DNA from: a virus
Strand: one strand, 5' to 3'
Virus record (IMG/VR): IMGVR_UViG_3300027714_000001
Location: 32,001 to 96,000 of that record
DNA: 64,000 nt
Positions within the stretch are counted from its first letter, which is position 1, and each line of letters opens with the position of its first letter. Of this stretch, positions 1 through 56,215 are shown piece by piece. Below the pieces are notes generated by a model. That model made no database searches. It saw only the letters and a list, made by a program, of their open reading frames with translations, and was not told the origin of the DNA. The position numbers were made by a program, and so were the translations under genes.

Positions 1-1
1 T

Positions 2-1134: not shown

Positions 1135-1830
1135 ATGAGCAGTAAACGCGAAAAACCTACTATTAAAAGAAAGTCAACTCCGTTCTGGGACAAAGCCCCA
1201 ATTAAGCCAAAAAATGCAAAACAGAAGTCTTATATAAACGCAATAAGAAATCACTGGATTACACTAGGCACAGGCTACCCTGGTACAGGTAAAAGCTACA
1301 TAGCAGCAGCACTAGCGGCAGAAATGTTAGAAGATCCTAGATGCCCAATAGAACGCATAGTTATATGTCGTCCTAATGAGGGCGTTGGGAAGTCAATAGG
1401 TATGTTAAAAGGTGGATTAAACGAAAAAATGATCCCATGGTGTGCCCCTATACTTGACGTATTAAAAGACAAGCTAGGAGAGTCCACAGTAGAGTATTTC
1501 TTAGAAAGAGAAAAAATAGAGCTTTTACCTTTAGAGTATGCACGCGGTAAAAGTTACGACAACACATTCATTATACTAGATGAAGCACAAAACGTAGACA
1601 AAGAGTCGTTAAAATGTCTTATGTTACGTATGGGCAGAGATTCTAAGCTAGTTATTGATGGAGATGTAGGACAGTGTGACATTGGAGAAGCTTCAGGACT
1701 AGCTCAGTTAATACAGCTAACAGCAGACTATGAAACTCCAATAGCCCACGTAGACTTTGACATTGAAGATATTGTACGAAGTGATATGTGTAAGTTTTTA
1801 GTCGGACTATTTGTAGTGGCTAATTTCTAA
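1135..1830 (+). CDS. phoH: PhoH-family ATPase
   Basis: GYPGTGKS Walker A, RGKSYDN, IILDEAQN, GDVGQCD motifs; lies upstream of nrdA as in T5. Confidence 0.95.
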   Translation: MSSKREKPTIKRKSTPFWDKAPIKPKNAKQKSYINAIRNHWITLGTGYPGTGKSYIAAALAAEMLEDPRCPIERIVICRPNEGVGKSIGMLKGGLNEKMIPWCAPILDVLKDKLGESTVEYFLEREKIELLPLEYARGKSYDNTFIILDEAQNVDKESLKCLMLRMGRDSKLVIDGDVGQCDIGEASGLAQLIQLTADYETPIAHVDFDIEDIVRSDMCKFLVGLFVVANF

Positions 1831-1837
1831 ATCAATC

Positions 1838-1861
1838 GCCCCGACTATGTTGGGGCTTTTT
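1838..1861 (+). terminator. Rho-independent terminator after phoH
   Basis: GCCCCGA-CTATG-TTGGGGC followed by a T run. Confidence 0.7.
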
Positions 1862-1936
1862 AATCTAAAAAACAAATAGACAAATTAGCAAAATACTTAT
1901 ATACTGTATTTTGAGTCAACATATAGGTAATAATAA

Positions 1937-4111: not shown

Positions 4112-4143
4112 AAAACAAATTAAATATTATAAAGGAAAAATGA

Positions 4144-5490
4144 ATGTATACAGTGTATAGTAAAGACAACTGCCCTTGGTGTGTAAAAGCAATCGAGTTA
4201 TTAACAGAACATAACCTAGAACACACCGTAGTTAAAGTAGAGTCTATAGAAGAACTTACTACAAAACTACAAAACTACACAACACTAAATGAGATTAACA
4301 CAGTTCCTCAGATAGTAGAAGACAAGTTTTTAATCGGAGGCTACCAAGACCTAGTAAAAACACTAAAAGGTGCACATGGTATTATAAGCGGAAATAAGAT
4401 ACTCAAAACAAAGAAAACTGTTTTCAACGCTGATAATGTAGGACATGAGACAGGGGAATATCCTTTGTTCTTAGGTGACCAGTTAGGTTTCCTAGACACA
4501 ATCAATACTCCTTACCCTGTACTAGACGAGCTATACCAAGCTCAGCTATCACAAATCTGGAACGAGTTTGAGATAGACCTTACACAAGACAGACAAGATA
4601 TGATTAATGCTCGTCCCGAAGTTGTAGACCTTATGGTAAAGACAATCTTATGGCAACATCTAGCAGACTCTATTGCTTCTAGGTCAATTACAGGTATCCT
4701 TATGGATTACGTGTCTAACTCAGACTTAGAAAGCTGGTACAACTGCGTAGCGTTATTCGAAACAATACATGCTAGAAGCTACAGTTTAATTATCAAGCAG
4801 ACATTCAATAACCCTAACGAAGCGTTAAAGAATGGCTACGAAGATTTACAAGTAATACAGCGTTCAGATATATTACGTGACGCATTTGACGGATTAGGCA
4901 ACTTACCTTTCGATGCGCCTAGAGAAGAAAAAGAAGAAAAACTGTATATTGCAATAGCTGCATTGTATATGTTAGAAAGCTTAAACTTCATGGCATCATT
5001 TGCTATTACGTTCGGTATTGTAGAAACAGGAATCATGCAGGGTATTGGTCAAATAGTATCACTAATCTGTCGTGACGAATTGTTACACGCAAGAGGTGGA
5101 CGAGAAGTTCTAAATATCGAGTTTAAGAGAAATCCAGAACTTGCTAAGAGACTTAGACCTCACTTCCAGAAAATGTTTGACGCTATCGTGTCCACAGAAT
5201 TAGAATGGACAGACTATTTGTTCAGTCAGGGTCGTCAAGTAATTGGACTAAGCCCTGAGCTTATCAAAAAGTACGTATTGTTTATGGCACAGCCTGTAGC
5301 AAATACTTTAGGTCTAGTAACAGAAAAGATAGAAACTACTCCATTACCGTACATGGAGACTTACATTGACTCTAGTAAGGTTCAAGTTGCTGCACAAGAG
5401 CTACAGCTAACTTCATACCTAGTAAACTCAGTGTCCCCTCTAACAGATCAAGACGAGTTTCTAGCAGAACTTCGAGGAGAAATGTATTAA
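4144..5490 (+). CDS. nrdB: Glutaredoxin fused to ribonucleotide reductase small subunit
   Basis: N-terminal CPWC, TVPQI and IGGY glutaredoxin motifs, then R2 motifs ETIHARSY and RDELLH. Confidence 0.92.
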   Translation: MYTVYSKDNCPWCVKAIELLTEHNLEHTVVKVESIEELTTKLQNYTTLNEINTVPQIVEDKFLIGGYQDLVKTLKGAHGIISGNKILKTKKTVFNADNVGHETGEYPLFLGDQLGFLDTINTPYPVLDELYQAQLSQIWNEFEIDLTQDRQDMINARPEVVDLMVKTILWQHLADSIASRSITGILMDYVSNSDLESWYNCVALFETIHARSYSLIIKQTFNNPNEALKNGYEDLQVIQRSDILRDAFDGLGNLPFDAPREEKEEKLYIAIAALYMLESLNFMASFAITFGIVETGIMQGIGQIVSLICRDELLHARGGREVLNIEFKRNPELAKRLRPHFQKMFDAIVSTELEWTDYLFSQGRQVIGLSPELIKKYVLFMAQPVANTLGLVTEKIETTPLPYMETYIDSSKVQVAAQELQLTSYLVNSVSPLTDQDEFLAELRGEMY

Positions 5491-5959
5491 AGCTATATTT
5501 GCTAACGATTTGGCAGGTGGTTTTGGAAATAAGGGAGGCCTACCCTGGCCTTCCAACTCTATAGACCTACAACACTTTAAGAAACAAACCCAAGGAGCTT
5601 ATATAATTATGGGCAGGAACACTTGGGAAACTTTACCAAAACTAAAAAATAGAACTCCTGTAGTGGTGTCTTCTAAAATAGGTAAAAATAAAGGGCTTTG
5701 GATACCTTCGGACATACTACAACAAGAACTAGAAGACTGTTGGCAAGGAGAAACTAACGCTTTCCTTATAGGAGGAGCTAAACTGCTAACACCTCAAAAT
5801 TTAAAGTTATGTACTAGCATAATTCATACTACTATAAAAGAAGTATATTACTCATGTGATACATATATCAATGAGAACACATTAGGGTTTCTAGGCACAC
5901 TAGACTCTCATCTAATCTACGAAGACAAGCATATAGAAATAAGAGAACATATCGTATAA
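5486..5959 (+). CDS. dfr: Dihydrofolate reductase (start probably ATT at 5486, upstream of the called TTG)
   Basis: IKAIFA...GNKGGLPW, DLQHFK, IMGRNTW, IGGA motifs. Confidence 0.9.
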   Translation: MKAIFANDLAGGFGNKGGLPWPSNSIDLQHFKKQTQGAYIIMGRNTWETLPKLKNRTPVVVSSKIGKNKGLWIPSDILQQELEDCWQGETNAFLIGGAKLLTPQNLKLCTSIIHTTIKEVYYSCDTYINENTLGFLGTLDSHLIYEDKHIEIREHIV

Positions 5960-6804
5960 TGAAAAATTACTTAAATCTAATACATAAAATAATACTAGAA
6001 GGGGAAGATTCAAACGACCGTACAGGAGTAGGCACTAAGTCTATCTTTGGTACTCGTATGGAATGGGATTTAAAGAAAGGATTCCCCGCAGTAACTTGTA
6101 AGACATTAGCGTGGAAGTCAGTAGTATCAGAACTATTATGGTTTTTATCAGGATCTTCTAACCTAGAACATTTACGTACTAGACTACATGGGTATGGTAG
6201 TGATAAATCTACTATATGGGATGCTAACTACAAAAATCAAGGTAGAGCCTTAGGATACACTAAAGGCAATCTTGGGCCTATATATGGACACCAGTGGCGC
6301 AACTTTAACGGTATAGACCAGATAAAAAATCTATTAATGTCAATACGCATGGGAAATGCTACAGGAGTACACAGTAGACGTAATATAGTTACTGCTTGGA
6401 ATGTACCAGATATTCCACATATGACGTTACCTCCCTGCCACCACACCTTTCAAGTGCATGTAAATAAAAATAAAGAGCTAAGCTTAATGTGGCATCAGAG
6501 GTCTGTAGATGTATTTCTAGGATTGCCATTTAACATAGCAAGTTACGCTTTGCTTACACACATATTAGCTGAGATAACTGGCTGTACTGTTGGAAATCTA
6601 ATATTTACTGGAGGAGATACTCACATATACAAAAACCATATGGTATCTATAGCAGAGCTAATGGAAAGAAGTCCTGGACTGCTTCCAGAATTAGTTATTC
6701 CTAATCTAACAGACTTAGACTCTGTACTACAGTCTCCTATAGAAAACTTTAAACTTAATAACTACAATCCGCAAGGAAAAATCGTAGCACCAATGGCTAT
6801 TTAG
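5959..6804 (+). CDS. thyA: Thymidylate synthase
   Basis: DRTGVGT, LPPCH, QRSVDVFLGLPFNIASY, GDTHIY motifs. Confidence 0.97.
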   Translation: MKNYLNLIHKIILEGEDSNDRTGVGTKSIFGTRMEWDLKKGFPAVTCKTLAWKSVVSELLWFLSGSSNLEHLRTRLHGYGSDKSTIWDANYKNQGRALGYTKGNLGPIYGHQWRNFNGIDQIKNLLMSIRMGNATGVHSRRNIVTAWNVPDIPHMTLPPCHHTFQVHVNKNKELSLMWHQRSVDVFLGLPFNIASYALLTHILAEITGCTVGNLIFTGGDTHIYKNHMVSIAELMERSPGLLPELVIPNLTDLDSVLQSPIENFKLNNYNPQGKIVAPMAI

Positions 6805-7810: not shown

Positions 7811-8964
7811 CTAAAAGAGAGAAAAATTATGGGAAAGAAAACTAGCAATAAAGGTAAAGGTAGCTACGCAACTTATCAAGCAGAGGGTCGCCGAGATAAA
7901 AACCGTACTGCTCGTTTGCTAAAGCATCTTAAAGCTTACCCCGAGGATGCAGCAGCACAGTCTGCACTTAAACGAGCTAAGCCCCCACGCAGAGCTTCAG
8001 GTAAAAAAGGTAACTTTCCTGCACAAAAAACGTATCATATCTTAACTACAGCAGGTCACAAGGTAGAAATGCCCACGTTTGACCCTACAGTGCCAAAACT
8101 TGTAACTAAATAACAGACTAGCCGAGCAACTGCTCGGCTACTTCTTGGAGAATAACATGAGAAACTTCGTAGCAAAATATGCTAGAATAAACAGAGCCTC
8201 TACACACAGAGACAAAACAAAATACCAACGCGGTTGGGAAATGGACTGGGACGAAATTGAGCCTCCACAATAGTTCTAACAAGAGACATTGTGCAGATTT
8301 AATTAACCCAAAAGGAACAACAAATGATTGATGAAAATGCAGTAGAAGACGGCAGCAAACAAGCAGTTCGCAAAGAAACTCAAGATATTATTGACGCTTC
8401 TATGGATCACCAGTTTCAAGAGAATATGCGTAAGTATACTTTAGTAGGTGAGTTAAGTAACTGGCGTACTAATATGAAAGACAATAAACGTCGTCAACAA
8501 ATACTTAGCGGTCGAGCTAAGATTCTAGACCTAGTAAATAAAGCATGTTCGAGCTAATCCCACAAGATTGGGCAAAGCGTAGAACGCATACAAAACGGGA
8601 GAAGCCTGTAGCAATACAGGTATTCGACTACAAGCAAATTAATAACCATTTCTGTACTATAATAGTTCATTTTGAAGATGGCAGTTCTAAGGAGTTACTC
8701 TCTAGAGTTGTACAAAATCACATAACTAAAACTTGGGTGGTAGATGGAATGGAATACTCAGTGAGGGTAACATATAATGGAGATTAAAATGACACCAACT
8801 TTTCTAGAAGCTTTGAAAGCCTCACTAAAAATTAGCCTTTCTGAGCCTTCTTATAACATTATGAAAGATGCCTCGGCAGAAGATGACCCAGAAGTAGTAG
8901 AAATGTTAATAGGCAGAGCTGTTGTAAATGAACTTATAACGGACGCATTAAAAGATTAAAATAT

Positions 8965-9661: not shown

Positions 9662-10456
9662 AATTAAGGTAATAACATGTACGGACTATATAAAACTACA
9701 ACAGTAATGGACTACGAAGGGGACATTGATTCCTACAAAACTTTACTAGCTGTAGCCCCTAGTTCCTCAGAACTAGTGGAGCGTTGGGACAAAAAATGCG
9801 AAAAAGAGTTAAAAGCAGTAAGTGAGTTACACAAAAGCTATGCAGATAACGTACCTCCTAAGTTCCTGAAAGGACAAAAAAGCCTTGAGTATTTAGGAAA
9901 TACTGGTGGGGGATATAGTTACGTAAAAATTATTGTTACTATTGAACAAATAAAACAGTGGGACAAATAATGTTTACTGCCTCATATGACTTTGAGATAC
10001 AGCAGTTTTTTATATACTATAACCACGGATTAGTGGGGTATTTTGATCCCAAACAAAAACCCAAGTACATAGACTTTTGCGATATATATCTACCTTTACA
10101 TTTAAGTAAACTTCATCTCAAACAACTAGAAAAAATTCTAGATTTAAAAGGGTCAACAGAATAAAACAGGGAACTTATAAAGTAAGTGGCACAATCGTAC
10201 ATGATACTCCTAAACTTGTGGTTTTTATGATGAAACACCTTAACCCACCTGCTTACTCTCACAGACTAGTTAGGTACGAGGAACTAAGAGATCATTATAT
10301 TTTTAAAGTAGAATCCGAACTATTTGAGCTAAGAGAAGATGTTCCTATGTACCTAGTATATTTTAACGTAAACGGGGTTGTTTCCGTAGAAATTGTTTGA
10401 CAGATTGCCCAAATAAGCGTATAATAGCTTTATTGAATTGATAAAAGGCTAATAAA

Positions 10457-15676: not shown

Positions 15677-15997
15677 ATGAAGAAAATATTATTAGCAGTA
15701 ACATTAGCCACGATGTTAGTATCGTGTGCAGACAACAAAGTATTACCCCATTATGGAGAAGTAAAAACTTATGGACTAGTTGATGCAAGTGCAGTAAAAC
15801 TTCCTTGTGTTAATTATGAAGTAGCTATTGGAAACGTAATCTGGTCAGCTATTTTTGCCCCGACAGTAGCAGTCCCTATATACATGGTAGGCTTTAGTAT
15901 TATGGAACCGACAAGTGTTGACGAGCTTTGTATGATAAAGACATTTGATGAAACCGAAGTCGGCAACTTGTTTAGAGAATACGAAAAAACTTTGTAA
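15677..15997 (+). CDS. Lipoprotein
   Basis: MKK + hydrophobic stretch + LVSC lipobox. Confidence 0.65.
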   Translation: MKKILLAVTLATMLVSCADNKVLPHYGEVKTYGLVDASAVKLPCVNYEVAIGNVIWSAIFAPTVAVPIYMVGFSIMEPTSVDELCMIKTFDETEVGNLFREYEKTL

Positions 15998-29633: not shown

Positions 29634-30057
29634 AGCCCCTGCAAACAGCAAGCTTTATCTTGGAGCAGATAGCGTCCGTTTTATTAAAGACGGACAAGCG
29701 TTTGCTAGAATCTCGGTAGTAGCAGTTATTCACTTAGCTGCTAGCAAAGGTTGTAAAGTTATAGGAGACAATTTTGTCAAACGAGTATATGACAGCAACC
29801 TAGGCAAACCACAACATAGAATGATGTTAGAGGTTTACGAAGTTTGTAAACTTTATCTAGAATTGGTAGAGCATCTTAGTGAGATAGATATTGAAGTGCA
29901 CTTGGACATTAGCGAAGATAGTCAATACGGGTCGTCATGTGCAGCTAAGCAAGCAGCAGGATACATTTTAGGTATGTGTAATGTACGCCCCATTATGAAG
30001 CCAAACGCTTGGGCAGCTTCTACTTGTGCAGACTTATTTAATAAAAAATTAGCTTGA
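29602..30057 (+). CDS. RNase H-like (DUF458-type) protein
   Basis: LYLGADS, RMMLEV, IEVHLDI, KPNAWAAS.CAD motifs. Confidence 0.7.
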   Translation: MKERILEEFRKAPANSKLYLGADSVRFIKDGQAFARISVVAVIHLAASKGCKVIGDNFVKRVYDSNLGKPQHRMMLEVYEVCKLYLELVEHLSEIDIEVHLDISEDSQYGSSCAAKQAAGYILGMCNVRPIMKPNAWAASTCADLFNKKLA

Positions 30058-39023: not shown

Positions 39024-40356
39024 TGATAATTGAAAGAATAACTGCTCGTATAGCTTGGATTGTAGAACCTGAACCTGGAGAGGAAGAAAAAACAAGAATT
39101 GTGGACTGGAGTGTTGTTACCAAAGTAAGAGTCTACGGTTACGAGATTTTAATAAACGAGCACTGGTTTAGTTGTGTTTGCAACCAAACTGCCGTAAAAG
39201 TCTATGAAGAAATAAAAACCCTGTGGAAAGACTACCTAATCTCGGAAGACCATAAAATATGATACTAAAGAAAGTTAGTGACAAATATGCTACTCTTAGT
39301 ACATTTAACTCAAGTACCGTAACTACAGCAGTAAACGTAATCAAATGGGGCAAGGTAGGAAGTATTTGTGTGTCTTTAAAATTTGTGTCTATAGGGACTT
39401 TAGAGGTAGAAACAAATTCTATTACAGACGCTAATGCCCTACACAAAGAAGCAGTAATACTTTGGGAATCCTACCTAGAACAAGAGGGTAGTACAATATG
39501 AGGACCATAAGAGAATTGAAAGCTAAAGTTGAATCTTTGGAGGCTCAACTAAGAATAAAAGAAGAAATGATTGAAACGCTAAAAACTGCAAGATGTTACG
39601 AGGTTGCAGATTTTAAACGAATTATTGCTAACCTAGAGGAAAGACTAAATAATGTTTGATGCCAATATGAGACACTTGCCCAAGGGTACTAAGTTCTTTG
39701 CTAAAGTATACGCTACAGGCAACCTAATGTTTGTTACGCCCAACAAAATGTATATGTGTGAGATGCTAGAAGATGACCACGAGAATCCTGCTGTAGATTT
39801 TGGCTTCGCCGTTTTACGTAGCCAGGACTGTGATGAGTCTTTCTTAGTATTTGAGGGCAGACAATCTCTAGCGGGATTTATCAGCAAAGAATCTTTAGCT
39901 CAAGCTAAAAAGATGCTTGACAAATAGCCTAATGTTTGGTATAATATGTTTCTGGAATTGAGAAAAGGTACACAAAATGTTTTACAAAGCAATATGCGGG
40001 GATTACGTAGCCCACATTATCAGAGTACAAGCTGTATGTTCAGAACCTAAGCCTATTATTATATCATACAAGTTTCGCCCCCGACCTCCGCATTATCACT
40101 GGGATAGGGAAACGCAGGAACAACAGATAGAGCACTTAGAAACACTATTCATAAATCGAACGCTAAAAGCTATACCTACGTTACCTAAAACCATTAGTAT
40201 AGCTACCGCGCAACAAGAATATGCGCAGTACGCAGTATGGAAGCTTGACAAAGAACTAGCAGAGTGGCGAAAGAAAGTAACAAAACAATGGAAAGTCTGG
40301 CTACCAGACGGCACTACAGCAATACTAAACGAAAACCCCCTACAGGAAAACATATA

Positions 40357-43675: not shown

Positions 43676-44169
43676 AAGATTATTTGACAGTAGGATTTTC
43701 CTATGCTATAATTACAAGGTAATCTTAAGAGAGACTAGAGAGAATCTTTAGAATCTCTACTACCTCCGCAAGATTTGACAGAGCTTAAGGTCTAGGATAT
43801 ACACCTCCCGATACCATACGGGAAGGGGGTGTTTATACGCAGACTAACTTTAGCTTCTTCAAATCTAAAACAAACAACAAATCATTAACAGCCACAGCTA
43901 TATCTACCAACAAATATAACAACTAATATCTACACAAGAGGGGACTTTTAACGCTATAGAACCCACTCGAACGGTATGAACAACCAATGTCGTATAGAGC
44001 TTCGAGAACCCCTTCACCATAATACTAGCCTACACTAGTCCACACCAGACTACACCAATATCGTCCTAGACCAGAGTAGAACAACACAAGACTACACCAG
44101 CCCGCTAATGTCCCCAAGAGAGACTGCGGGCTTTTTTGTGTCTAAAATTTAATACCTCTAGTCAAAACT

Positions 44170-44284
44170 GTCATAATTGTTCGCTAATGTCCAAAAGCAG
44201 TCAGAATTGCAGTCATAATTGTTCGCTAATGTCCAAAAGCAGTCAGAATTGCAGTCATAATTGTTCGCTAATGTCCAAAAGCAG
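44170..44284. repeat. 42-bp tandem repeat (~2.7 copies) containing GTTCGCTAATGTCC
   Basis: Unit GTCATAATTGTTCGCTAATGTCCAAAAGCAGTCAGAATTGCA. Confidence 0.95.
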
Positions 44285-44426
44285 GGGCCGACCCCATCGG
44301 AATAGACAACCCCGTCAGCTCAGAACGGGCTAGGGCGCAGGAGAGCTTCTAACGGGACATTAGCGGTCTGCCCCGAGTCTAACACCAGATTAGCCGTGGT
44401 TACACCGAAATAAACTTTAAATAGCG

Positions 44427-44455
44427 TTGACAAACCGCTTGCGCTCATGTATAAT
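44427..44455 (+). promoter_or_regulatory. Consensus sigma70 promoter with no credible downstream ORF
   Basis: TTGACA-17-TATAAT; a second TTGACA-18-TATACT lies at 44583-44612. Confidence 0.8.
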
Positions 44456-44636
44456 AGTATGATAAAGTGGGAAAGCTTATGCCAAAATTCGCCGCAGCGG
44501 GGGGTAACATTATCACTACCCGCACCTAGTCTGCACCTACCACACAGTCCCGCCCCGTCCCGCAGAAAAACTAAAAAATCACTTGACAAGCAACGTCTCG
44601 GTAAGGTATACTAGGCGCGAGTCTAATATAAGTACT

Positions 44637-44800
44637 AACGTAACATAAGTACTACCTCGCGGGCGCAACAACGTAACATAAGTACTACCTCGCGGGCGCA
44701 ACAACGTAACATAAGTACTACCTCGCGGGCGCAACAACGTAACATAAGTACTACCTCGCGGGCGCAACAACGTAACATAAGTACTACCTCGCAGGCGCAA
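44637..44800. repeat. 33-bp tandem repeat, 5 copies
   Basis: Unit AACGTAACATAAGTACTACCTCGCGGGCGCAAC. Confidence 0.97.
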
Positions 44801-44976
44801 ACAGGGGTGAACCCCTTTTGACCAATCTAAACTGATCAAAATTTGACTGGACCGACCAGTCAAATAAAGCTTGACACGAGAACGCTGCGCGCAGCTTCCA
44901 TGCCACTTTGTCAAGCTTTTTATTTAATTTTAAGCAAAAAAAAGCCATGCCAATGTGGCACAGCTTTTGCTAGAGC

Positions 44977-45339
44977 TTACAGCTCAGTAGCGACTGACAA
45001 AGCAGCGAGAGCTTCGTTCAAGCGGTCTAGGTCAGCTTTGCTGGCCTTCTCTAAAGAATCCAACTCGCCTTCCTTAAGGCTAAGAAAAATTTCAGCAGCC
45101 CGCACTAGCGAGATTTTGCGAGTGCCAGTTTTTGAGGTTACAGAAACTTTGACGTTAGGCTCATACAAACCTTCGCTTACTAGTTTACCGCGAACCATAG
45201 GAATGGTCTTGCCCAAACCTTTTGCGATGCTAGACAAGGCATCGTTTTCGCCTTTGTATTCGCTTTTAAGAGTAGCGATTTGCGCAGGAGTCCAAGATAC
45301 AGATTTTACAGCAGATTTTACAGTTTTTGCATTAGACAT
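44977..45339 (-). CDS. T5 A2-like DNA-binding / DNA-transfer protein
   Basis: W.......IA...G......VR.KL.....Y......RK...VR......L.SLE.A pattern of T5 A2; tandem duplicated promoter upstream (45379-45536). Confidence 0.75.
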   Translation of the reverse strand: MSNAKTVKSAVKSVSWTPAQIATLKSEYKGENDALSSIAKGLGKTIPMVRGKLVSEGLYEPNVKVSVTSKTGTRKISLVRAAEIFLSLKEGELDSLEKASKADLDRLNEALAALSVATEL

Positions 45340-45625
45340 TTACGTCTCCTTTAGTAATGCGGATTTGGGATTATTCCCGATTTCTTAAGACTATTATAAC
45401 AATTTTTAGTCTTTGAGTCGAGCTTTTATTTAATTATTTTTTAAACTAAATTTCCAGCTTGTCCTGATTTCTTAAGACTATTATAACAATTTTTAGTCTT
45501 TGAGTCAAGCCTTTATTTAATTATTTTTTAAACTAATTTCACAAACCTTCCCAACTCAAGACAAGTATTATCTCACAATGTTAGCTTGCTGTCCAGCTTT
45601 ATTTCAAAATAAGGTGAAAATAAAG

Positions 45626-45642
45626 TTGGCACGGGTCTTGCT
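45626..45642 (+). promoter_or_regulatory. sigma54 -24/-12 consensus site
   Basis: TTGGCAC-GGGTC-TTGCT; IHF consensus AATCAATGACTTA at ~45680. Confidence 0.55.
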
Positions 45643-47069
45643 AGGAAAATAGGGGGTTGACTTTTAAAAACTCCTTTAAAATCAATGACTTACGCCGCTT
45701 CGCCGCGCGCGGCTGCGACCCCCTTTTGTCAAGTTTTATTTTTCAAATTTTAAATAATTTGCTCATACTTAATCCCTAACACTAGCCATAAAATCAGAGC
45801 AATCATCCGCGTTAAAATTTCCATCTTCGTCTATGTCTTCCGATTCAATCCAGCCTGAATCAGTTTGTAAAAGACCATGTGATTCTGCAAAATCCTGCTC
45901 GTATTTTTCCATCGCAATGTCTTCCGCTTGGTTCTCGTCTTCCGCTTCGACTTCGTAATGTTCACTGTACCCACACCAGTCTACAGCGTAAATTTCTACT
46001 ATGAATTTTTTCATCGGTTTAGCTCCTTAAACATTAATTGTCTTATTGTTTCGCACGTAGCGTCACTTGCTAAAATAGAAATATTTTTAAAAGTCTTACC
46101 ATCCCTTCGAAGTTCTGCGCCTAGCTCCTTAGCTATATACTGAGAATCAGCAAACTTTAAAACAGGCATTGCCATACAATGCAACGAACGTTGACGAAAA
46201 AGGCCGCCCCCTTTTGTTAGCGTGATCTCTCCGTCTTCCCAAATTTCTTGTACCATCCCAACATTTTCCATAGTTGGGGCGGCTTTAAATGCTTCGATTA
46301 TTTTTAAAATGCTCATTTTTGTAGTTCCTTAAGTAGGTCTTCTAGTTCTGAAATTTGGTCTTGTCTGTCTCCAAGCTCTGATACTATATTATCATATTCT
46401 TCATGACAATGCTCTATTTCTTTGATAAGTTTTGCTATTTTTAAGGCTCTTGCAGGGTCAAAATTTAAGTCTACTGTTTTTACTCGTAAAACAGTAACAG
46501 ATTTATACGTATCTGGAATCTGTTCTAGGGTTTCAAAGTATTCTACTACTTCAATACACCCACCAGAGTAGTTGTCTCCAACTACTTTAGAACTTACTAC
46601 CTTATAAAGTTTACTCATCATTTTTCTTCCTAGTTATTCAATACAAGTATTATCTCATAAATAAGCTACGTTGTCTAATACCGTTTTAGTATATGCTTAT
46701 GCATTTTTAGTCTTGACAGGCGTTCCGCCGCGCGCGGCTGCGACCCCCTTTTGTCAAGTTTTATTTTTCAAATATTTTTTCATCCCCTTTTAAGTCCTTT
46801 TTTTTGTTTTTTAAAAATAATTACTGCTTGCTTTCTATAAAATTCCTTAGTCTCTGTGCAATTATTTTCATTATACCCTTCATCTACTAAGTTTTTAAAA
46901 TTTCTTAACATGCTTTTAATATTCTCCAATAGCTAAAATTAAATTCTTTTTTGTCGGTATATTTGTTTGACTTTTTGCAAAATTTCTTTGCTTCTTTTTC
47001 TGTCTCACAATAGCCGACAATATCCACAATTCCAAACTTATCTGTAATTTCTACAATATACATATTATA

Positions 47070-47336
47070 TCACCATATAAAAAATAAAACAACTAAATTC
47101 GATGTAATGCCTATTATGCTAGAAACGATATGAAGTTTGCATTTTCTAGTAATTGCGTCAACTAAGTAACAACATAAAGCAGTTATTAACAAAACTATAC
47201 TAGCTATAGGCATAGAAACACCTGTTTTTATTGAAACTATTACATTAGGAATATTCATCATTTGCATTAGGCCGAAGCCTACCCAAGGAATATAAGCAAG
47301 CATTGCTTGCTTATATTTATTAAATCTATTTTCCAT
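47070..47336 (-). CDS. Small 3-TM membrane protein (possibly PQ-loop/SemiSWEET-like)
   Basis: Three hydrophobic helices, 'NIPNVIVSIKTG'. Confidence 0.4.
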   Translation of the reverse strand: MENRFNKYKQAMLAYIPWVGFGLMQMMNIPNVIVSIKTGVSMPIASIVLLITALCCYLVDAITRKCKLHIVSSIIGITSNLVVLFFIW

Positions 47337-48091
47337 TATAAAAACTTTACCTCGTTCAAAGTTACATTTTTACCTAGACGAATTTTGTCTTTGATTTTTT
47401 TTAATTTTTCTTCGTTTAAAATAATTTCTTCTTTGTCTTGGATAAGTCTCCAAGGGTGAGAAATAATACCGTAGTTAATTTTCTTACCTAGACCAAGCAA
47501 TCGGACTAAAAGCTCTTTTTCAATTAGTGCATCATCTAAAGCGGTATGCGACTCTTGAAATTCCCAATCCCCAATGCCGTATTTATAAGCAACTTCGGCA
47601 TTAGTTTTATAGTTACCCGCAGGTGAAACATGACCCATTAACTTACACCACTTTTTAAAAGTACGTTGCTGTAGTAATGTCTCGCAAGATACACGCCACA
47701 AATCAAGTTGCTCTCTTTTGCCTATAGCCATAAAGCCACCATATTTACGACCTGTATTACTAATGACCCTAGAATCAAAAGCTAAATTATAAGCGCAAAT
47801 AGTAGTGACACCATGATTTTTCATTAGCTTGTTTACGTCATGGCAAATTACAGCCCAGCTTTTTACGTCCATACGGTTGCATCGGATATTTGGCTTGTAA
47901 AAGCTATCGACTTTTTTAAAGTAAAAGGCTTTTTTCATCATCTGGACATTTTCAAAAACTTCCTTTATAATGGAATCATATCTTGCAAGCTCTTTGCCTT
48001 CTTTGTCACAAATTACCATACCAAAATCAAAAACTTCACCCGTCAAAGTTGCGGTTTCTGTGTCGATTACTGCGTATATTCTTTTAGTCAT
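47336..48091 (-). CDS. DEDDh 3'-5' exonuclease
   Basis: VIDTET, AYNLAFD, ESHTALDDA motifs. Confidence 0.88.
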   Translation of the reverse strand: MTKRIYAVIDTETATLTGEVFDFGMVICDKEGKELARYDSIIKEVFENVQMMKKAFYFKKVDSFYKPNIRCNRMDVKSWAVICHDVNKLMKNHGVTTICAYNLAFDSRVISNTGRKYGGFMAIGKREQLDLWRVSCETLLQQRTFKKWCKLMGHVSPAGNYKTNAEVAYKYGIGDWEFQESHTALDDALIEKELLVRLLGLGKKINYGIISHPWRLIQDKEEIILNEEKLKKIKDKIRLGKNVTLNEVKFL

Positions 48092-48782
48092 TTTTTAATT
48101 CTCTATCTAAGTAAGTGCTAATTATAGCTTTTTTGGTGGTTTGTGTCAAGTGTTTATTTAAGCTATTTTATAAATAAATTCTCTTTGCTCTCCCCATCCA
48201 ACACAAGTATTATCTCATACCCTTTCAACATTGTCAACCCTTTATTTTATTTTGTTTTAAATTTAATTTAAAACTAACTCTGTACCGATTCAACACAAGT
48301 ATTATCTCATAAATACGTTGGGTTGTCAAAGACCGTTTTGGTATAGCTTTGCTTGTTTTTATACCAAAACGGTCTTGACAGGCGTTCCGCCGCGCGCGGC
48401 TCCTGCGGCCCTGTCAAGTTTTTATTAAAAATAAAATTCTTTCTAGTGTGTCTATTTCGCCCGCTATGTAAGCTAATCTGTACGCTTTTTGTCGGGTGTT
48501 TTCTCTCTCATTAGTTACTAGTTTATGCGTGTTTCTTGCGATTTTTAGCTCTTTTTCTATTATTTGTTTTGGCAACATCTTTTTTCTCCTTTTTGTGAAA
48601 TTTTAAATAGCATTCGTATACGCTTAAATATTCTTCGGCTTCCTGATTTACATAGTTTTTACCTTCAAGATAGACGCAAACGGATGCCTCTTGCTTGTAT
48701 GTTTCCCAATAATTGGCAACGGCTTCAAGGCTAGTAAATACACCATGAACTTCTAGATACTCTAGTGCAACATAAATCATTA

Positions 48783-49295
48783 TTAATGACCCTCAAAAGG
48801 TACGTTTATAGATTGCATACCGATTTTAATAACGGCTTTGCAGTTTGCTAAATTATCATCAATCAAAACCATTTTTTCCAATTGGCGAAAATCAAAACGG
48901 CTAATTAAGTGTGTAGTTTTTAAGTGGTAATCTCTGCGAGAATCATTTTCACCACATCGCGCCATAATTGATTTAGGCTTTACGTTATTATTAGCTAACC
49001 AAGCTTTTGTGTTATCACACATTACGCGAGCTGTACATATATGAAAATCAACTCCCGCTTCCTGTAGTAAGTGAATTGCCTTAATTAATGGTAAAGCTTT
49101 ATCTTTTGATACATGTTCGGCGGTTGACATTTCGCGGTACTTGTCAAGGTTTAATGAACCGTCTTTGTTGCAAATCTGTCTATGACTTGCATCGGCAAAA
49201 ACTCCGTCCATATCAAAAACAGGAACTTTTTTCGCCATGATTAGGGTAGCGGCTAATTGAGTTGCTGACTTTTTGTTATTTTGTAGTGTAAACAT
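48783..49295 (-). CDS. HAD phosphatase (dmp/PNKP-like)
   Basis: VFDMDGV, CTAR, K, IDDN motifs; pre-early location like T5 dmp. Confidence 0.75.
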   Translation of the reverse strand: MFTLQNNKKSATQLAATLIMAKKVPVFDMDGVFADASHRQICNKDGSLNLDKYREMSTAEHVSKDKALPLIKAIHLLQEAGVDFHICTARVMCDNTKAWLANNNVKPKSIMARCGENDSRRDYHLKTTHLISRFDFRQLEKMVLIDDNLANCKAVIKIGMQSINVPFEGH

Positions 49296-49848
49296 ATTTT
49301 TTATTCTCTTTATTAATTCAGTGTAAGTATTATATCGCGTTTGGCGGGTGGAGTCAACCTTTTATTCAATAAAATTATCAATAAAATCATCGGCATCTTC
49401 TATGCTTTTAAAGTTAGCTATGACTTCGTCTTTTTCGTTTATAACTTCGTAGATTCCGTTGTTCAAAAATTTATACATTTAAAGTTTTCCTAGTTATTCA
49501 ATACAAGTATTATCTCATAAAAGTATCGTGTTGTCCACCGCTATTTTAGTATATGGCATACTAAAAAGTTATTTGACAAAAACCGGAAAGCCGCGCGCAG
49601 CGTTGCCGCCCCTGTCAACCTTTATTTTAAATATATTCCCAGATATATTTAGACTCAAAATATTCTTCGGTTTCCACACAATTTTTAGTATTGCAATAGT
49701 GGTCTGCATCTTGCCATTTTTCAAAAGTCAAGAACTCATTTTCTCGCTCAATTACTTCGTTGCGGCTTAAGGTTAATAAACTTACCCGTACCATATTAAA
49801 TTCTCCAAAAAAAAAAAAAAGCCCGAGGCGAACGCCCCGAGCATATTA

Positions 49849-50172
49849 TTAAGCTTCTACCAGAGCCTGCACAGCATCTAGGATGGTTTCAAGATCAGAT
49901 TTTGATGCCTTCTCAAAGCTGGTAACTTCTTCAACACCTAGCAAGTCAGAGATTGCTTGCACTAGGGTGATTTTACGAACCGCCCTGCTAACGCTAGGGG
50001 ATGCGCTTTTTGCTTTAGCAACATAAACACCTTCGGCAACAAGCTTGCCACGTACTTGCGGGATAGTCTTGCCCATGTCTTTAGCGATAGTTGCAATTGC
50101 AACGCCTTCCTGATACTTAGCAGTCATAGCGGCAACAGATTCGGTAGTATAAGCGGTAGATTTAGTAGTCAT
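49849..50172 (-). CDS. Second A2-like paralog
   Basis: Shares IAK..GKTIP.VRGKLV.EG.Y, RKI.LV.A and S.EKASK.DL with 44977..45339. Confidence 0.75.
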   Translation of the reverse strand: MTTKSTAYTTESVAAMTAKYQEGVAIATIAKDMGKTIPQVRGKLVAEGVYVAKAKSASPSVSRAVRKITLVQAISDLLGVEEVTSFEKASKSDLETILDAVQALVEA

Positions 50173-50744
50173 ATTATTTTTACTCTCTTTAGTTATTTAG
50201 AACGTTTATTATAATTCAATTCGGTTGTTAAGTCAATCTTTATTTTAATTCTTTTTTGTAATCTTTTTAATTCGTTTCCCTGATTTCTTAAAGCTATTTT
50301 ACCATGTTTTATTGGTAGCTGTCAAGTGCATTTCGTAACTTTCTTTAATTTCTTTTCTAGCGGCTTGCTTAGAAAAGAAAGCTCGTAAACAAACTATTGC
50401 AGAAAAGCTAGGAATAACCACAATACAAGATAATAATTGAAAAACAGTCATTTCTAATCCTTGTTTTAAGATATACATTATATCACCATAAAGTCCTGTA
50501 GTCGAGTCTTTTAATAGATTAAAAATGCTTTTATGATAAATCGCCCTTGGCGAGTTTCCCTCTGGCGTAAAATTTGGGTTTAACAAAGCTTCGGCATATG
50601 CCTTATCTGTAAATTCTTTAAAAGTCATGGGGTTCTTCCTAGTTATTCAATACAAGTATTATCTCATAAAAGTATTGTGTGGTCTAATAACATTTTCGCA
50701 TAAGCTTAGATCAAAATGATCTTGACAGCGGCGGCGAGCCGCGC

Positions 50745-50816
50745 GCACCTAATATTTGCACCTAATATTTGCACCTAATATTTGCACCTAATATTTGCAC
50801 CTAATATTTGCACCTA
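50745..50816. repeat. 13-bp tandem repeat, 5.5 copies
   Basis: Unit GCACCTAATATTT. Confidence 0.97.
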
Positions 50817-51168
50817 TAAGTTTTGTACATAAGTAGTCCCAAACTCAAGAGGGATCTGCCCCGTCTTTTTGTTGATGAAATTTTGAACGATTGGCTGAAA
50901 ATCGAAATTCTTAGCAATGCTCTTATATACCCCCACATCGGTCAAATCTGCAAGCACGTTAGCCGCTACAAGCTCATTAAGTATTTTTAGACCCTTAGTT
51001 ACACTATCAACCTTAAACGTCTTAGAAGGCATCCTAGAGCTTGATTCTGAAAAAACCCGAATTGCTATTGTTGACATATGTTATACCCTTTAGTTATATT
51101 AAATTCATGCCCATTGGCACAATAAATCCTAAACGAGAATGGTTCTCGTTTAGGAGTGACCCACCTTT

Positions 51169-51639
51169 TTAGATACTTGTCAATAATTCATTTATCAATT
51201 TATTGATTCTATCAATGTCAAGGTCAATATTATTTAATTCAAATTTTTCTTGCTTTTTATTATATATCACTTGTAACGCTTTGTGTACCGTTTTTTCGTA
51301 TTTGCCATTTATTTCTTCAAGTTTCTTCGTAAGTTCTTTACGAGCTTTTGAGCAGCTTTCTAGCGCGTATTTATCTGCCAGATTATTAAATTCAACATCA
51401 TCCGTTATAACAAAAACAGTCACTAATGAGTCACTATCAACCAAAACGTTATAACGTCTTAGTGCTTGATATGGGTGAAAAGATTTACCCACTTTGCAAG
51501 CCCATTTTATGTTATTTTTGCCCAAAAAACTACCCACCGGCACTGAATATATGGTGTTAGCTAATTTGCCTATTTTGTGATCAGATTGGTGATTTTTTAG
51601 GCTTTTTTGGATTGCTCGTATTTTCATCGTTTTTCTCAT
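51169..51639 (-). CDS. Hypothetical protein downstream of a sigma54-type promoter
   Basis: 156-aa ORF with a C-terminal coiled coil. Confidence 0.6.
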   Translation of the reverse strand: MRKTMKIRAIQKSLKNHQSDHKIGKLANTIYSVPVGSFLGKNNIKWACKVGKSFHPYQALRRYNVLVDSDSLVTVFVITDDVEFNNLADKYALESCSKARKELTKKLEEINGKYEKTVHKALQVIYNKKQEKFELNNIDLDIDRINKLINELLTSI

Positions 51640-51666
51640 TTAATTGATTAGGTATTACCTATATAA

Positions 51667-51865
51667 TGCAACCTACGTGCCAAGTTGCAAAATAGGTAAG
51701 TCGTTGATTTATAAGGGTTTTTATATTCTAGCTAATTGAATAGTTGGCATGATGACATTTTATGCACCTGAATAGTGCAATGATTCCTGATTATAGTGCA
51801 CCACTTTGGTAAGTCGTTGATTTATAAGGGTTTTTAACCTTTTTGAGATGCACCAAAAACTGACA
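51667..51865 (-). promoter_or_regulatory. sigma54 promoter with IHF sites and NtrC-type enhancer sites
   Basis: TTGGCAC-GTAGG-TTGCA (51683-51667); AATCAACGACTTA (51709-51697 and 51822-51810); TGCAC-N7-GTGCA (51763-51779); TGCACCACTTTGGT (51797-51810). Confidence 0.75.
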
Positions 51866-51959
51866 TACCAAAAACACAAAAAACGTGTTAAGTCTAATAA
51901 CAAATTAATCAAAAAATAAACAAAAAAGTATTGGACATTTGAAAATCATAGCAAAAAAC

Positions 51960-52101
51960 TTATCCACAGGTTATCCACACACTTATACATCTGGGGATAA
52001 AAAGCGGCTTTTTAAAATGTCAACCTTTTATTTTAGCTCTCTCAGTGAGTTATACAGAACTTACCCACAGGGTTATCCACAGGCTGTTGGGTTGTGGGTA
52101 A
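51960..52101. promoter_or_regulatory. DnaA-box cluster
   Basis: TTATCCACA at 51960, 51971 and 52073; one-mismatch boxes at 51992(-), 52061 and 52093(-). Confidence 0.85.
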
Positions 52102-52213
52102 CCTGTTAGCAACAAAAAACCTCCAATATAAACGCCCTGTACGGTCGCTGGTGGCATTATCTCTTAGCAGTCTTATTGATACAAAGGGTAGGGCTAAACG
52201 CGCACACTAATCT

Positions 52214-52234
52214 AAATGATTACCATTCGCATTT
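52214..52234. promoter_or_regulatory. Fur-box-like site
   Basis: AAATGATTACCATTCGCATTT compared with AATGATAATCATTATCATT. Confidence 0.5.
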
Positions 52235-52729
52235 GGCGGCGCGGGCGCGATGCGGGCTGTAGAGCATCGCTACAGCCCGCGCCCTTAAAGGGCGGTAGAC
52301 TGCCCCAACAGCTTATACGTTATTTTCTCAACCCTATCTTCATGTATACCATATTGATCTAAATAGCTCTTTTGAGCGTCTACAAGTGTGTTGCCTTCAG
52401 CCGTTGCAACGTGCATTCTGCCACCAATTAAATTTGTTGTGAATTGATAAACTTTCATATTTTGCTACCTTTTAAAATTTTCTGGTTAAACCGAATTGTT
52501 TAACCAGACCTATATCCTACAGCGCTCGGGTACCTTAGTCAAGTAAATGTTTAAAGTTATTTCCAGATATGTCTGCTTTAGTTCTTAGGTAAACATTTTT
52601 ATTTGTGGTACTTTTACCTGCCTGTATATCTTTGCGGATATTTGACCAGTCAAATGCTACCACGTCAACGAAATATTCCGCCAATTCGATTTTTCCAGAT
52701 TCTAGTATTAGGTAGTAATTAGTTGCTTT

Positions 52730-53433
52730 CATTTTCTTTACTCTTTATTTATTCGATGAGGTATTATCTCAGGTTCTAATCTATTGTGCAAGTACAAATG
52801 TCAAAAAAGCGGATAAAAAACATAGTGTACTAAAAAAGTTTTGTTCGCCTTGTTTGTCCGAAGTAACACACATTATGCCAAAAACTATAGTAAATAATAA
52901 AGCAGTTATAAACATAATTTTAACCTTTACAAAATGCGGCAGATGCCTTAAATGTCATGTCATAATTTACAACCATATCCATCTCGCAAACCGCTCTCTG
53001 GTGAACTTCGATTCCGGATTTTCCCAATCCTAGTGAAGTACCAAAAACGGCAGCTATATACATAACAGATAAAAGTACTATGACCTGAGCGATTGACTTC
53101 ATTATTAGTGTTTTCATTTTCTTTACTCTTTATTTATTCGATGAGGTATTATTGCATTCTAATGCTAGATTGTAAAGGGTATTTTTGAATTTTCTTCCCA
53201 ATTATTATTAAGTTTTTTATTTTGGTTAAATCTATCAGAATCAAAATTAGCCGCAATGGTAATGTACTGGTGTTGGTGAAACGCGGTAGCAAAAAGACCC
53301 TTATCAAAACAGTCACGCAAAAACTCAAGACTTTCAAGTCTTGACAAATTACGGGTAGTGGTATTTTCGGTTTTTACTGCAAATTCGTTGTCATTCATTT
53401 TCTTTACTCTTTATTTATTCGATGAGGTATTAT
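52730..53433 (-). repeat. Three copies of a 38-bp -10/leader/RBS/ATG cassette heading small pre-early ORFs
   Basis: CATTTTCTTTACTCTTTATTTATTCGATGAGGTATTAT at 52730, 53115 and 53396. Confidence 0.9.
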
Positions 53434-53643
53434 TGCACGAAAAGGGTACCTTTGTGAAATACCGAATTGGAATAAGCACCTGCTTTTTAGTTATAAGCCG
53501 CGCGCAATGGGGGCTGCAGGGGTGCTCTGTAGGGCGGGCGCAATGGGGCCTGCAGAGCATGAAATTAAATGAAATAAAAGGTTGCTATTATCTGTCAATA
53601 CTGTATTATTACCTTACTGAAACAAAACGAACCGAGAAGAAAA

Positions 53644-53994
53644 ATGACCACATTCACTATCACAAGATTAACAGAGACACAAGCACGAATCATGCCACAA
53701 GGCAATCATTTATATTTATGTGAGACCCTGACAAAACTTGGCATGAATTTTGATGGCACCAAGTTCGGAAAGTGTAAAGCGAAAAACGGCCTATGGGAGC
53801 GTCTACGCTCCCATAGTACCAACTGCCCATTTGGTCTAATCATAGTCCTGACGTTCACTACAGAGGCTGCTATGTGTGCCGCTGAGAGCGCCTGTAAGAC
53901 TTCTCTACCAACCCTTGCTTGGAATAGCTCAGAACGAGAATATACTTCATTAACCCCTGAGAAGGCTTTACAAGCTCTATTACGTAACATCTAA
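53644..53994 (+). CDS. T5orf172/GIY-YIG-like protein
   Basis: HLYL...KFGK......ERL.......P..L.......AE pattern. Confidence 0.45.
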   Translation: MTTFTITRLTETQARIMPQGNHLYLCETLTKLGMNFDGTKFGKCKAKNGLWERLRSHSTNCPFGLIIVLTFTTEAAMCAAESACKTSLPTLAWNSSEREYTSLTPEKALQALLRNI

Positions 53995-54120
53995 TAGGGG
54001 CGGGGGGGGTTAGGAGACTGGTCTGACCAGTCCGACCCCCCAGACCCATTTCCAAACGCGATATAGGGTATTTTCAAAAAAGTGGAGAGGCGCGACAAAT
54101 ATCGGCTGAGGAGACCCTCA

Positions 54121-54350
54121 CTACGGTTCTCTGCGGGACATTAGCGAACGGGGTATACTATTTCTACTACGGTTCTCTGCGGGACATTAGCGAACGGGGT
54201 ATACTATTTCTACTACGGTTCTCTGCGGGACATTAGCGAACGGGGTATACTATTTCTACTACGGTTCTTTGCGGGACATTAGCGAACGGGGTATACTATT
54301 TCTACTACGGTTCTCTGTGGAACATTAGCGAACGGGGTATACTATTTCTA
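54121..54350. repeat. 46-bp tandem repeat, 5 copies, containing GGACATTAGCGAAC
   Basis: Unit CTACGGTTCTCTGCGGGACATTAGCGAACGGGGTATACTATTTCTA; an extra core copy lies at 54371. Confidence 0.97.
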
Positions 54351-54471
54351 CTTTGCAGTAGCCTGAGCCAGGACATTAGCGAACTGCAGGTAGTTTAACG
54401 AAGTTCGCTTAAAATTTTTACTTGACAGGATATTTCTGGAGATGTATAATGCAAGTATAGAGGAGAAATAC

Positions 54472-54936
54472 ATGGACAACGAAATAACCGTGATAAGCCC
54501 CGAGGGGTTGGAGATAGCACACTGTTATCTGCAAAATAATAGTGACTCGGTTAAGACTGCCGAATTACTTAATATAGACATTACAGAAGTCGACAGATAC
54601 TTGTGCAAGCGGGAAGTACGAGGATACATTGATAGACTATTTAACGAATCGGGCTTCCGAAATCGTGATAAGATGGCCAATGTTTGGGACGCAATCCTAG
54701 CAGCCAAGTTGGAAGAAATGGACGATACAGGTATGGGCTCGTCAAAAGATATTGTAGAGATAATGGAGAAGATTCATAAATTTAACCTAGACCAAATGAA
54801 TATGCAACTAAAAATACTAGAACTGGAGAAATCCAAGGAGCCCGCAGTGGTGGTCAATACGCAGAACAACTACGGTGGGGCAAATTATAACAGTTTAATG
54901 GAAAAGATATTAGCAGGTAAAAATGGAGATAAGTAG
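54472..54936 (+). CDS. terS: Terminase small subunit
   Basis: T5-like ISPEGLEIA..YL and SSKDI motifs; promoter and GAGGAG SD upstream; precedes terL. Confidence 0.85.
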   Translation: MDNEITVISPEGLEIAHCYLQNNSDSVKTAELLNIDITEVDRYLCKREVRGYIDRLFNESGFRNRDKMANVWDAILAAKLEEMDDTGMGSSKDIVEIMEKIHKFNLDQMNMQLKILELEKSKEPAVVVNTQNNYGGANYNSLMEKILAGKNGDK

Positions 54937-56215
54937 ACCGTACTTAAATTGTGAAAACATTATAGACTTCCCCGTAGCGGAGCGTTTTCTAAAGCTACCC
55001 GTTGAGAACTTCCTAGAACTAAAAGGCATAGAACCTATAGCGCCCCAGATTGGATTGATAAACGCTATAAACGACCCTATACATAGATTTGTAGTCGCCT
55101 GTCTATCTCGTAGAACAGGTAAGACATTCATATCTAACACTCTAGCGTTCTTGAAAGCTATGGAACCAAAGTCAAAAGTACTGATAGTATCGCCTAACTT
55201 CTCATTAACAAACATATCTTGGAATGAGCAGATAACTATGCTTAAAGATCACAACATTGAGATAGAGTCTAAGAACAAGGCCTTGCGTGAGATACACCTA
55301 ACAAATGGTTCTATGATAAAGTTTGGGTCATACAATAATCCAGATTCATTAGTAGGACATTCGTACGACTTGATACTAGTGGACGAAGCAGCCCTAGAGA
55401 ACAAAGGGGCAGATGTATTCAACGTACAGCTACAGCCTACTCTAGACAAAGCAAACTCTAAATGTATCTTCATAAGTACACCACGAGGTTTGAATTACTT
55501 TTATGACTTTTACATGCGAGGGTTTAGCGATGACTACCCTTCTTGGATAAGCATACATTCTACCTACCGTGACAACCCCAGAAGTGTTTCGAGTGTTATT
55601 GAAGAAGCTCGTAAGAGTATGAGTAAGGCTGAATTTAAGCAAGAGTACGAAGCAGACTTTGCAACGTTTGAAGGACAGATATACGAAGGGTTTGACGAGG
55701 ATAAGCATGTACGCGACCTTAGTGACATGGAGTTTCCTGAGCACAGATTTGAAGCTATAATGGGTATTGACCCCGGCTACAAGGACGATACAGGGGCTGT
55801 AATATTCCAATACGATATGGATGAAGACAAATTTTACTTAATGTGGGATTACCAAGAAAAAGAACGAAATACAGAGCAGCACGCACTAGAATTTTATAAC
55901 CGCATGGAAGGCTGGAATGTAGACATAGTGTTCTGCGACAGCGCGGCAGCCCAATTCAGGCAAGACTTAGCTTCCTTATACGACATTCCTAGCAACAAAG
56001 CTAACAAGAGTGTACTTGACGGACTAGGGTATGTACAAGCCTTGATAGACAACGACAAGCTAATAGTAGATATTAACTGTACTCATGTCATCATGATGCT
56101 CCTCAACTATCGTTGGGACCCTAACCCAATGCTTGCAAAACCCAAACCGAAGCACGATCAGTTCTCGCACGTTGCGGATGCCCTGAGATATGCACTATAC
56201 AGCTATACTCGTTAG
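54923..56215 (+). CDS. terL: Terminase large subunit
   Basis: SRRTGKT Walker A, LVDEAA Walker B, ISTPRG, GIDPG and HVADALRY nuclease motifs. Confidence 0.97.
   Translation: MEISRPYLNCENIIDFPVAERFLKLPVENFLELKGIEPIAPQIGLINAINDPIHRFVVACLSRRTGKTFISNTLAFLKAMEPKSKVLIVSPNFSLTNISWNEQITMLKDHNIEIESKNKALREIHLTNGSMIKFGSYNNPDSLVGHSYDLILVDEAALENKGADVFNVQLQPTLDKANSKCIFISTPRGLNYFYDFYMRGFSDDYPSWISIHSTYRDNPRSVSSVIEEARKSMSKAEFKQEYEADFATFEGQIYEGFDEDKHVRDLSDMEFPEHRFEAIMGIDPGYKDDTGAVIFQYDMDEDKFYLMWDYQEKERNTEQHALEFYNRMEGWNVDIVFCDSAAAQFRQDLASLYDIPSNKANKSVLDGLGYVQALIDNDKLIVDINCTHVIMMLLNYRWDPNPMLAKPKPKHDQFSHVADALRYALYSYTR

Follow-up and report, generated by a model that had tools for sequence, protein, structure and literature searches.

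Oppositely oriented arrays of a shared 14-bp motif at the two edges of a pre-early-like gene block in an uncultured T5-like phage

How T5, SPO1 and the K-like phages, whose long terminal repeats measure 7-13 kb, set their ends and duplicate the repeat in the course of packaging is unknown (PMC8541194). A locus bearing on this question is contained in the IMG/VR virus record IMGVR_UViG_3300027714_000001, of which a window of 64,000 nucleotides, meaning the whole stretch of DNA analysed, was considered. Two tandem arrays, located about 10 kb apart and built on different repeat units, share in this window a 14-bp motif, GTTCGCTAATGTCC, which is oriented in opposite directions at the two places; the second array is found next to terS, the gene for the small terminase. 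What do these arrays mark? The answer favoured here, tentatively and at somewhat less than an even chance, is that they are putative protein-binding sites at the edges of a direct terminal repeat of the T5 type, about 9.8-10.3 kb long and collapsed in the assembly, whose ends are placed at the arrays from the sequence.

One single contig, 106,179 bp long, contains the window as its bases 32001-96000. The two ends of this contig are identical over 524 bp (1-524 = 105656-106179), inside a repeat-containing coding region. The contig is thus a closed circular assembly, and the label 'direct terminal repeats' carried by the record denotes the assembly overlap, not a physical repeat. Since the assembly is circular, a long terminal repeat would be collapsed to one copy. 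The genome, judged from its genes, is that of an uncultured T5-like phage.

Copies of the motif and layout of the two edges

Exact copies of the 14-mer are located on the + strand at 44179, 44221 and 44263 and on the - strand at 54136, 54182, 54228, 54274 and 54371, while a further - strand copy, at 54320, carries one mismatch. The 11-base core of the motif, CGCTAATGTCC, is additionally found at 44103 (+) and 44355 (-), which brings the occurrences of the motif or its core to five at 44.10-44.37 kb and six at 54.13-54.38 kb. The positions listed in a preliminary description of the locus proved right at every coordinate, including the mismatch in one of the 46-bp copies and the inverted core at 44355. 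The cores of the two arrays face each other, being on the + strand on the left and on the - strand on the right.

Both arrays were delimited by Tandem Repeats Finder. The left one (44170-44284, +) is composed of 2.7 copies of a 42-bp unit, 100% identical, and includes the three + strand 14-mers; the right one (54120-54352, -) is composed of 5.1 copies of a 46-bp unit, 97% identical, and includes the four exact copies from 54136 to 54274 together with the mismatched one. A 12-bp sub-repeat, GCAGTCAKAATT, is present twice in each 42-bp unit. The core is identical in the two kinds of unit, which are otherwise unrelated, as had been maintained from the start. The spacing of the units corresponds to four helical turns on the left and to about 4.4 on the right. 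In addition, a 17-bp inverted pair (44098-44114 and 44354-44370) surrounds the 42-bp array.

When up to two mismatches were allowed, 12 matches were observed against 0.34 expected from 100 shuffles, none of which reached 12. The motif was also looked for in the entire 106,179-bp genome: eleven copies fall in the two non-coding edge zones, as compared to one stray in the other ~96 kb. The latter, at 29904-29917 (-), matches 13 of the 14 bases, with an exact core, and is located within a coding frame; about 0.03 matches of this type are expected by chance in the genome, and it is probably a chance match. The motif might have turned out to be scattered over the rest of the genome. The scan of the whole contig adds only this near-copy, and therefore it is not. 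A scan of IMG/VR for the exact motif returned 97 single, unrelated matches and no related array. The motif arrays are a real feature, well above chance.

The terS-proximal edge, on the right (53990-54441), comprises a block containing a G-run, the 46-bp array, the single exact copy at 54371-54384 (-) and the terS promoter (54422-54450, +), a perfect TTGACA-17-TATAAT sequence. The single copy ends 37 bp before the -35 of this promoter, in agreement with the earlier remark that it lies just upstream of terS. The gene itself is listed as an open reading frame (ORF) at 54442-54936 (+), its probable start being at 54472, behind a GAGGAG ribosome-binding site; it belongs to phrog_3802, the family of T5.156, and its product aligns with TerS of T5 and of Vibrio phage VB_Vhy_SJ1 (SJ1 in the following). 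The best matches of terL (54923-56215, +), 56% identical, come from T5-like phages of Vibrio belonging to the Demerecviridae. TerL and TerS are hence both of the T5 lineage. The G-run block (53993-54075, +) is non-coding, lies just inside the right array and is 74% identical to a segment (8170-8253) of L103, one of the contigs of relatives described below. The G-run measures 8-12 bases, and several metagenome contigs of relatives start or stop exactly there.

The terS-distal edge, on the left, is a non-coding, repeat-rich zone of 1.26 kb (43676-44940), in which a promoter at 43684, a hairpin, the 42-bp array, a box of sequence GCTAGGGCGCAGGA, the inverted core, two further promoters and an array of five 33-bp units follow one another. 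The inverted core (44355-44368, -) lies on the inner side of the array, and 58 bp separate it from the downstream -35 of the first of the two promoters (44427-44455 and 44583-44612, both + and strong), which lead into an ORF-less stretch extending to 44822.

The location of two motif copies upstream of promoters suggests a different function, in which the motif would serve as operator of a phage regulator controlling the 44427 promoter, with its ORF-less transcript, and the 54422 promoter, from which terS-terL and the late genes would be expressed; the regulator could, for example, silence them during pre-early expression. The - strand copies at 44355 and 54371 differ by 21 bp, or two helical turns, in their distance from the respective -35, and the block between the arrays encodes two predicted DNA-binding proteins of the A2 family. 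Moreover, the terS promoters of SPP1-type phages overlap packaging sites. This explanation is nevertheless quite unlikely, as most copies (three on the left and five on the right) are 100-340 bp away from any promoter, the left array is directed away from a promoter, and a third consensus + strand promoter, at 43684, is devoid of a motif copy. In addition, if the motif were an operator and nothing else, its placement at precisely these two edges would be left unexplained.

The bracketed gene block and its relatives

The DNA enclosed by the two edges (44940-53990) is a pre-early-like block. Nearly all of its genes are small and read from the minus strand, and a family of repeated sigma70 promoters drives them. 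One of these genes (48783-49295, -) is a homologue of dmp: it matches phrog_415 with an E-value of 8e-19, the same family being matched by T5 dmp at 4e-57, and T5 dmp aligns with it, as does a gene contained within the terminal repeat of SJ1. Two paralogous genes (44977-45339 and 49849-50172, both -) match phrog_1725, the T5 A2 family, with E-values of 2e-5 and 3e-6; these are weak matches, yet reciprocal ones at the level of the family. Two A2-like copies are present in the relatives as well. In T5, dmp and A2 are both located within the terminal repeat. A homologue of A1 was not found in the block, where the 251-aa metallophosphatase-like protein encoded at 47336-48091 (-) gave no significant alignment to T5 A1.

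A cluster of DnaA boxes is found at 51960-52081, where three perfect boxes (51960, 51971 and 52073) are accompanied by two near-boxes and preceded by an A+T-rich stretch, the whole extending over 51880-52085. The cluster is conserved in relatives, two of which (L103 and L120) contain TTATCCACAGGG twice. In appearance it is like the clusters of DnaA boxes in the terminal repeat of T5, or like a small origin. On the basis of the dmp and A2 homologues, the promoter family and the DnaA boxes, the block is recognised as equivalent to the pre-early region of T5, the region that forms the terminal repeat in that phage.

Arrays of this kind could also be replication-origin iterons, which a tandem, oriented motif resembles, or the sites at which a 10-kb segment is inverted by crossover, invertible segments being flanked by inverted repeats, as is the G segment of Mu. 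Both possibilities are very improbable. Neither a resolvase/invertase nor a tyrosine recombinase nor a ParB-type protein was found in the genome (no PF00239, no PF00589), and on these grounds the invertible-segment reading was rejected, together with that of a partition site. Iterons are further disfavoured by the position of the DnaA-box and A+T-rich cluster, which lies elsewhere, at 51.9-52.1 kb, and by the location of the T5 origins near the centre of the genome (10.1101/866236); inversion is disfavoured by close relatives, in which the orientation of the block is the same.

Relatives were found in IMG/VR and among metagenome contigs, at 68-76% identity in TerL or dmp, and they keep the gene order of the block. 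A tandem array is located directly upstream of the terS promoter in every relative contig reaching terS, and its repeat words differ from one to another: in the L103 type it is made up of TGTTCTGA x11.5 plus TACGAAAGTC x3.3, in the L126 type of about 18 ten-base units. L126 is the only relative covering both edges, and its terS-side array lies 9.9 kb from a far-edge array of 63-bp units (x3.5), inside which the contig stops. As judged from this comparison, arrays at both edges are a conserved positional feature, the sequence of which is fast-changing; a mirror-oriented core common to both arrays is so far seen, among the sequences compared, only in this phage. No close relative was recovered with TerS, or with the pair of genes that flank the left edge, as queries, nor was one recovered in a search of prokaryote genomes. 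The contig ends of the relatives were also considered as physical termini and rejected, since they fall in tandem repeats or in the conserved G-run and are therefore assembly breaks.

Phages with known terminal repeats and the proposed role of the arrays

The closest comparison is with SJ1 (PP712102.1, 121,361 bp), a Pogseptimavirus of the Demerecviridae with 56% identity in TerL, in which bases 1-6675 equal 114687-121361 and constitute the deposited 6,675-bp repeat. The order repeat, terS, terL is the same as in the phage described here, terS beginning 229 bp past the left repeat copy. A 19-bp palindrome, AATGAGA-N5-TCTCATT, is located at 10-28 and 6641-6659, that is 10 and 16 bp inside the repeat ends, and is duplicated in the right copy. 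It is also found three times within 400 bp just outside the right copy (114294-114677) and nowhere else, the whole record having been scanned with one mismatch allowed; a control pattern gave 0 matches. SJ1 therefore also has an edge-restricted motif, with a short array just outside one end. It differs in that the motif is palindromic, and so without orientation, in the presence of one copy inside each end, and in the size of the repeat, 6.7 kb.

In Staphylococcus phage K (KF766114, 148,317 bp) the 12-mer TAAGTACCTGGG occurs exactly twice, at 139822-139833 (+) and 8485-8496 (-), and each copy borders directly on an annotated repeat boundary, on the side of the unique sequence. They correspond to the 12-bp inverted repeats TAAGTACCTGGG / CCCAGGTACTTA described in Kayvirus as bracketing a terminal repeat of ~8 kb (PMC6022877, PMC7596081). 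The likeness consists of a short motif present only at both repeat edges, inverted, + on the left and - on the right, the edges being placed from gene content in the present case. The differences are a single copy per side instead of 3-6, another motif, and an unrelated family of myoviruses. An inverted motif bracket is thus known from K-like phages; what is new here are multi-copy arrays in a T5-like phage.

Multi-copy arrays are found in T7, where CCTAAAG, with one mismatch allowed, recurs through 175-340 and 39606-39740, on both sides of the 160-bp repeat. These sequences, SRL and SRR, resemble the arrays described here in that several copies of a short motif are located directly on both sides of a terminal repeat. 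They are unlike them in their direct orientation, in the motif (7 bp with a period of ~13 bp, against 14 bp with periods of 42 and 46 bp) and in the length of the repeat, which is 160 bp against ~10 kb.

T5 has the same gene order when read in the direction of terS, but with a few extra genes intervening. Its Repeat Region 3, a non-coding injection-stop zone of 1.66 kb which spans the repeat boundary at the terS-distal edge (10.1101/866236), is comparable in relative position to the left edge zone. The T5 injection stop signal, however, has paired DnaA boxes within inverted repeats; here, DnaA boxes are absent from both edge arrays, and the perfect ones are ~8 kb away from the left array.

The preliminary description had regarded the arrays as the ends of a ~10-kb terminal repeat collapsed in the assembly, recognised by TerS or by a factor duplicating the repeat. 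The gene content of the block, the adjacency of terS, the circular contig, the confinement of the motif to the edges and the precedents of SJ1 and phage K all lend this reading partial support for the phage in question; its generality is not supported, given T5 and L126, discussed below. We consider it well motivated by gene content, by layout and by the two independent precedents. The protein binding the arrays is predicted to be most likely TerS, the A2-like protein encoded in the repeat being the second candidate. TerS is placed first because terS and its promoter adjoin the right array, because the termini are fixed in this lineage, and because the small terminases of lambda (cosB R-sites) and SPP1 (pacL/pacR) read clusters of oriented sites. 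As in cosB and pac, several copies of a short site lie beside terS and its promoter; unlike there, where the sites flank a single cut, they are 10 kb apart. A sequence search of solved structures with TerS and the A2-like protein returned nothing.

One protein would then read the shared 14-bp core at both edges and, the cores facing each other, would be held in mirror-image orientation at the two boundaries. The packaging enzyme might cut or nick one strand at one edge of a single repeat copy in the concatemer and the opposite strand at the other edge, and the DNA between the edges would thereby come to be on both ends of the packaged chromosome. Read in the direction of terS, this chromosome would have its beginning at the left array and its end past the next copy of the right one, in which case the initiating and the terminating cut would meet the motif in opposite orientation. 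If concatemers have one repeat copy per junction, as in T7, mirror loading would suit nicks made in opposite strands, after which the repeat would be copied.

A more specific proposal is that the mirror arrays are a cis code for the duplication of the repeat. A terminase or nickase would nick opposite strands ~10 kb apart, strand-displacement synthesis would follow, the orientation of the motif would set the strand, and nicking would take place at the GCTAGGGCGCAGGA box (44329-44342, +), which is conserved and lies 45 bp to the inner side of the left array. This is unlikely, somewhat more so than a host-factor operator, the alternative treated below. The box contains, at 44335, GCGCAGG, which is the sequence at the annotated major single-strand interruption of T5 (T5 9741-9748, minus strand) and has six occurrences in the genome on the + strand and one on the - strand; the box could be a nick site of the T5 type. 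Boxes of this kind are located in the 72% relative L126/L116, at 15825-15838 and 6177-6188 in L126 and at 7727 in L116. In L126, the far-edge copy of a 12-mer box, TCCTGCGCCCTA, is the equivalent of the GCTAGGGCGCAGGA box, with a distance from the array of 46 bp, against 45 bp here.

The edges could otherwise be occupied by a protein of the host. In this case a DNA-binding protein of the host would have the 14-mer as its operator at the ends of the first-injected DNA, where it might pause entry, shield the ends or couple early and late promoters to host physiology. Recruitment of this kind has been proposed for the DnaA boxes of the T5 injection-stop region. The edge palindrome of SJ1 matches the Fur-box consensus at 16-18 of 19 positions. 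The 14-mer itself can be read as half-sites GTTC and GTCC, 10 bp apart, as in tandem-binding regulators. The left array is located in a 1.26-kb non-coding zone which is the positional equivalent of T5 Repeat Region 3, and three perfect DnaA boxes occur within the pre-early-like block. The injection-stop region of T5 contains DnaA boxes (10.1101/866236) and also a Fur-like sequence. We hold this explanation to be unlikely, though to be taken seriously as an alternative. The motif is not common to relatives with 70-76% protein identity, which probably infect related hosts, and a fast-changing phage protein fits this pattern better than a conserved host regulator. Moreover, the 14-mer is not known to fit any operator consensus.

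Several observations weigh against the arrays being edge marks of a terminal repeat. The repeat edges of T5 do not have arrays of a shared motif, and have in common only 10-12-mers at chance level. The two edge arrays of L126 are likewise without a common motif: they share only the adjacent 12-mer TCCTGCGCCCTA, located just inside each of them in direct orientation. The Fur-box-like character of the SJ1 edge motif implies that edge motifs in the family may be sites for host factors rather than for the terminase. Finally, the distances that separate two motif copies from the consensus promoters downstream of them are similar and in helical phase, a layout which fits a transcription operator too.

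The 14-mer, compact and oriented, present in several copies and confined to the edges, offers the T5 lineage a well-delimited DNA sequence on which binding and mutagenesis experiments can be carried out. Should the rule hold, one could predict from sequence alone where uncultured T5-like genomes have their termini. Edge-restricted motifs in three separate lineages, represented by this phage, SJ1 and phage K, point to a common logic.

Other elements of the region

A promoter of perfect consensus sequence (43684-43712, +) is the leftmost element of the terS-distal edge. An ORF-less stretch of ~400 nt separates it from a terminator-like hairpin (44099-44137, +), with stem AGCCCGC/GCGGGCU and then a T-run, which closes the upstream + strand transcript. 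The hairpin has a folding energy of -18.3 kcal/mol (z = -2.7), and the outermost motif core (44103-44113) is contained in its loop. The ORF-less transcript (43684-44137) may be a non-coding RNA; an Rfam search of the whole region gave nothing above threshold. A megablast comparison of the left edge against deposited phages gave no match.

The 33-bp array at the inner side of the same zone (44637-44800, +) is made up of five identical units, followed by a hairpin at 44803-44820. The core of its unit, GCGCC-N-GCG-R-GG-K-AGTAC, is kept in three relatives (L114, L120 and L126), unlike the edge arrays, and metagenome contigs often break at this stretch. A further array, within the block at 50745-50816, consists of perfect 13-bp units (x5.5) of sequence GCACCTAATATTT; at the matching place, relatives contain 15-bp x8 arrays of a similar word.

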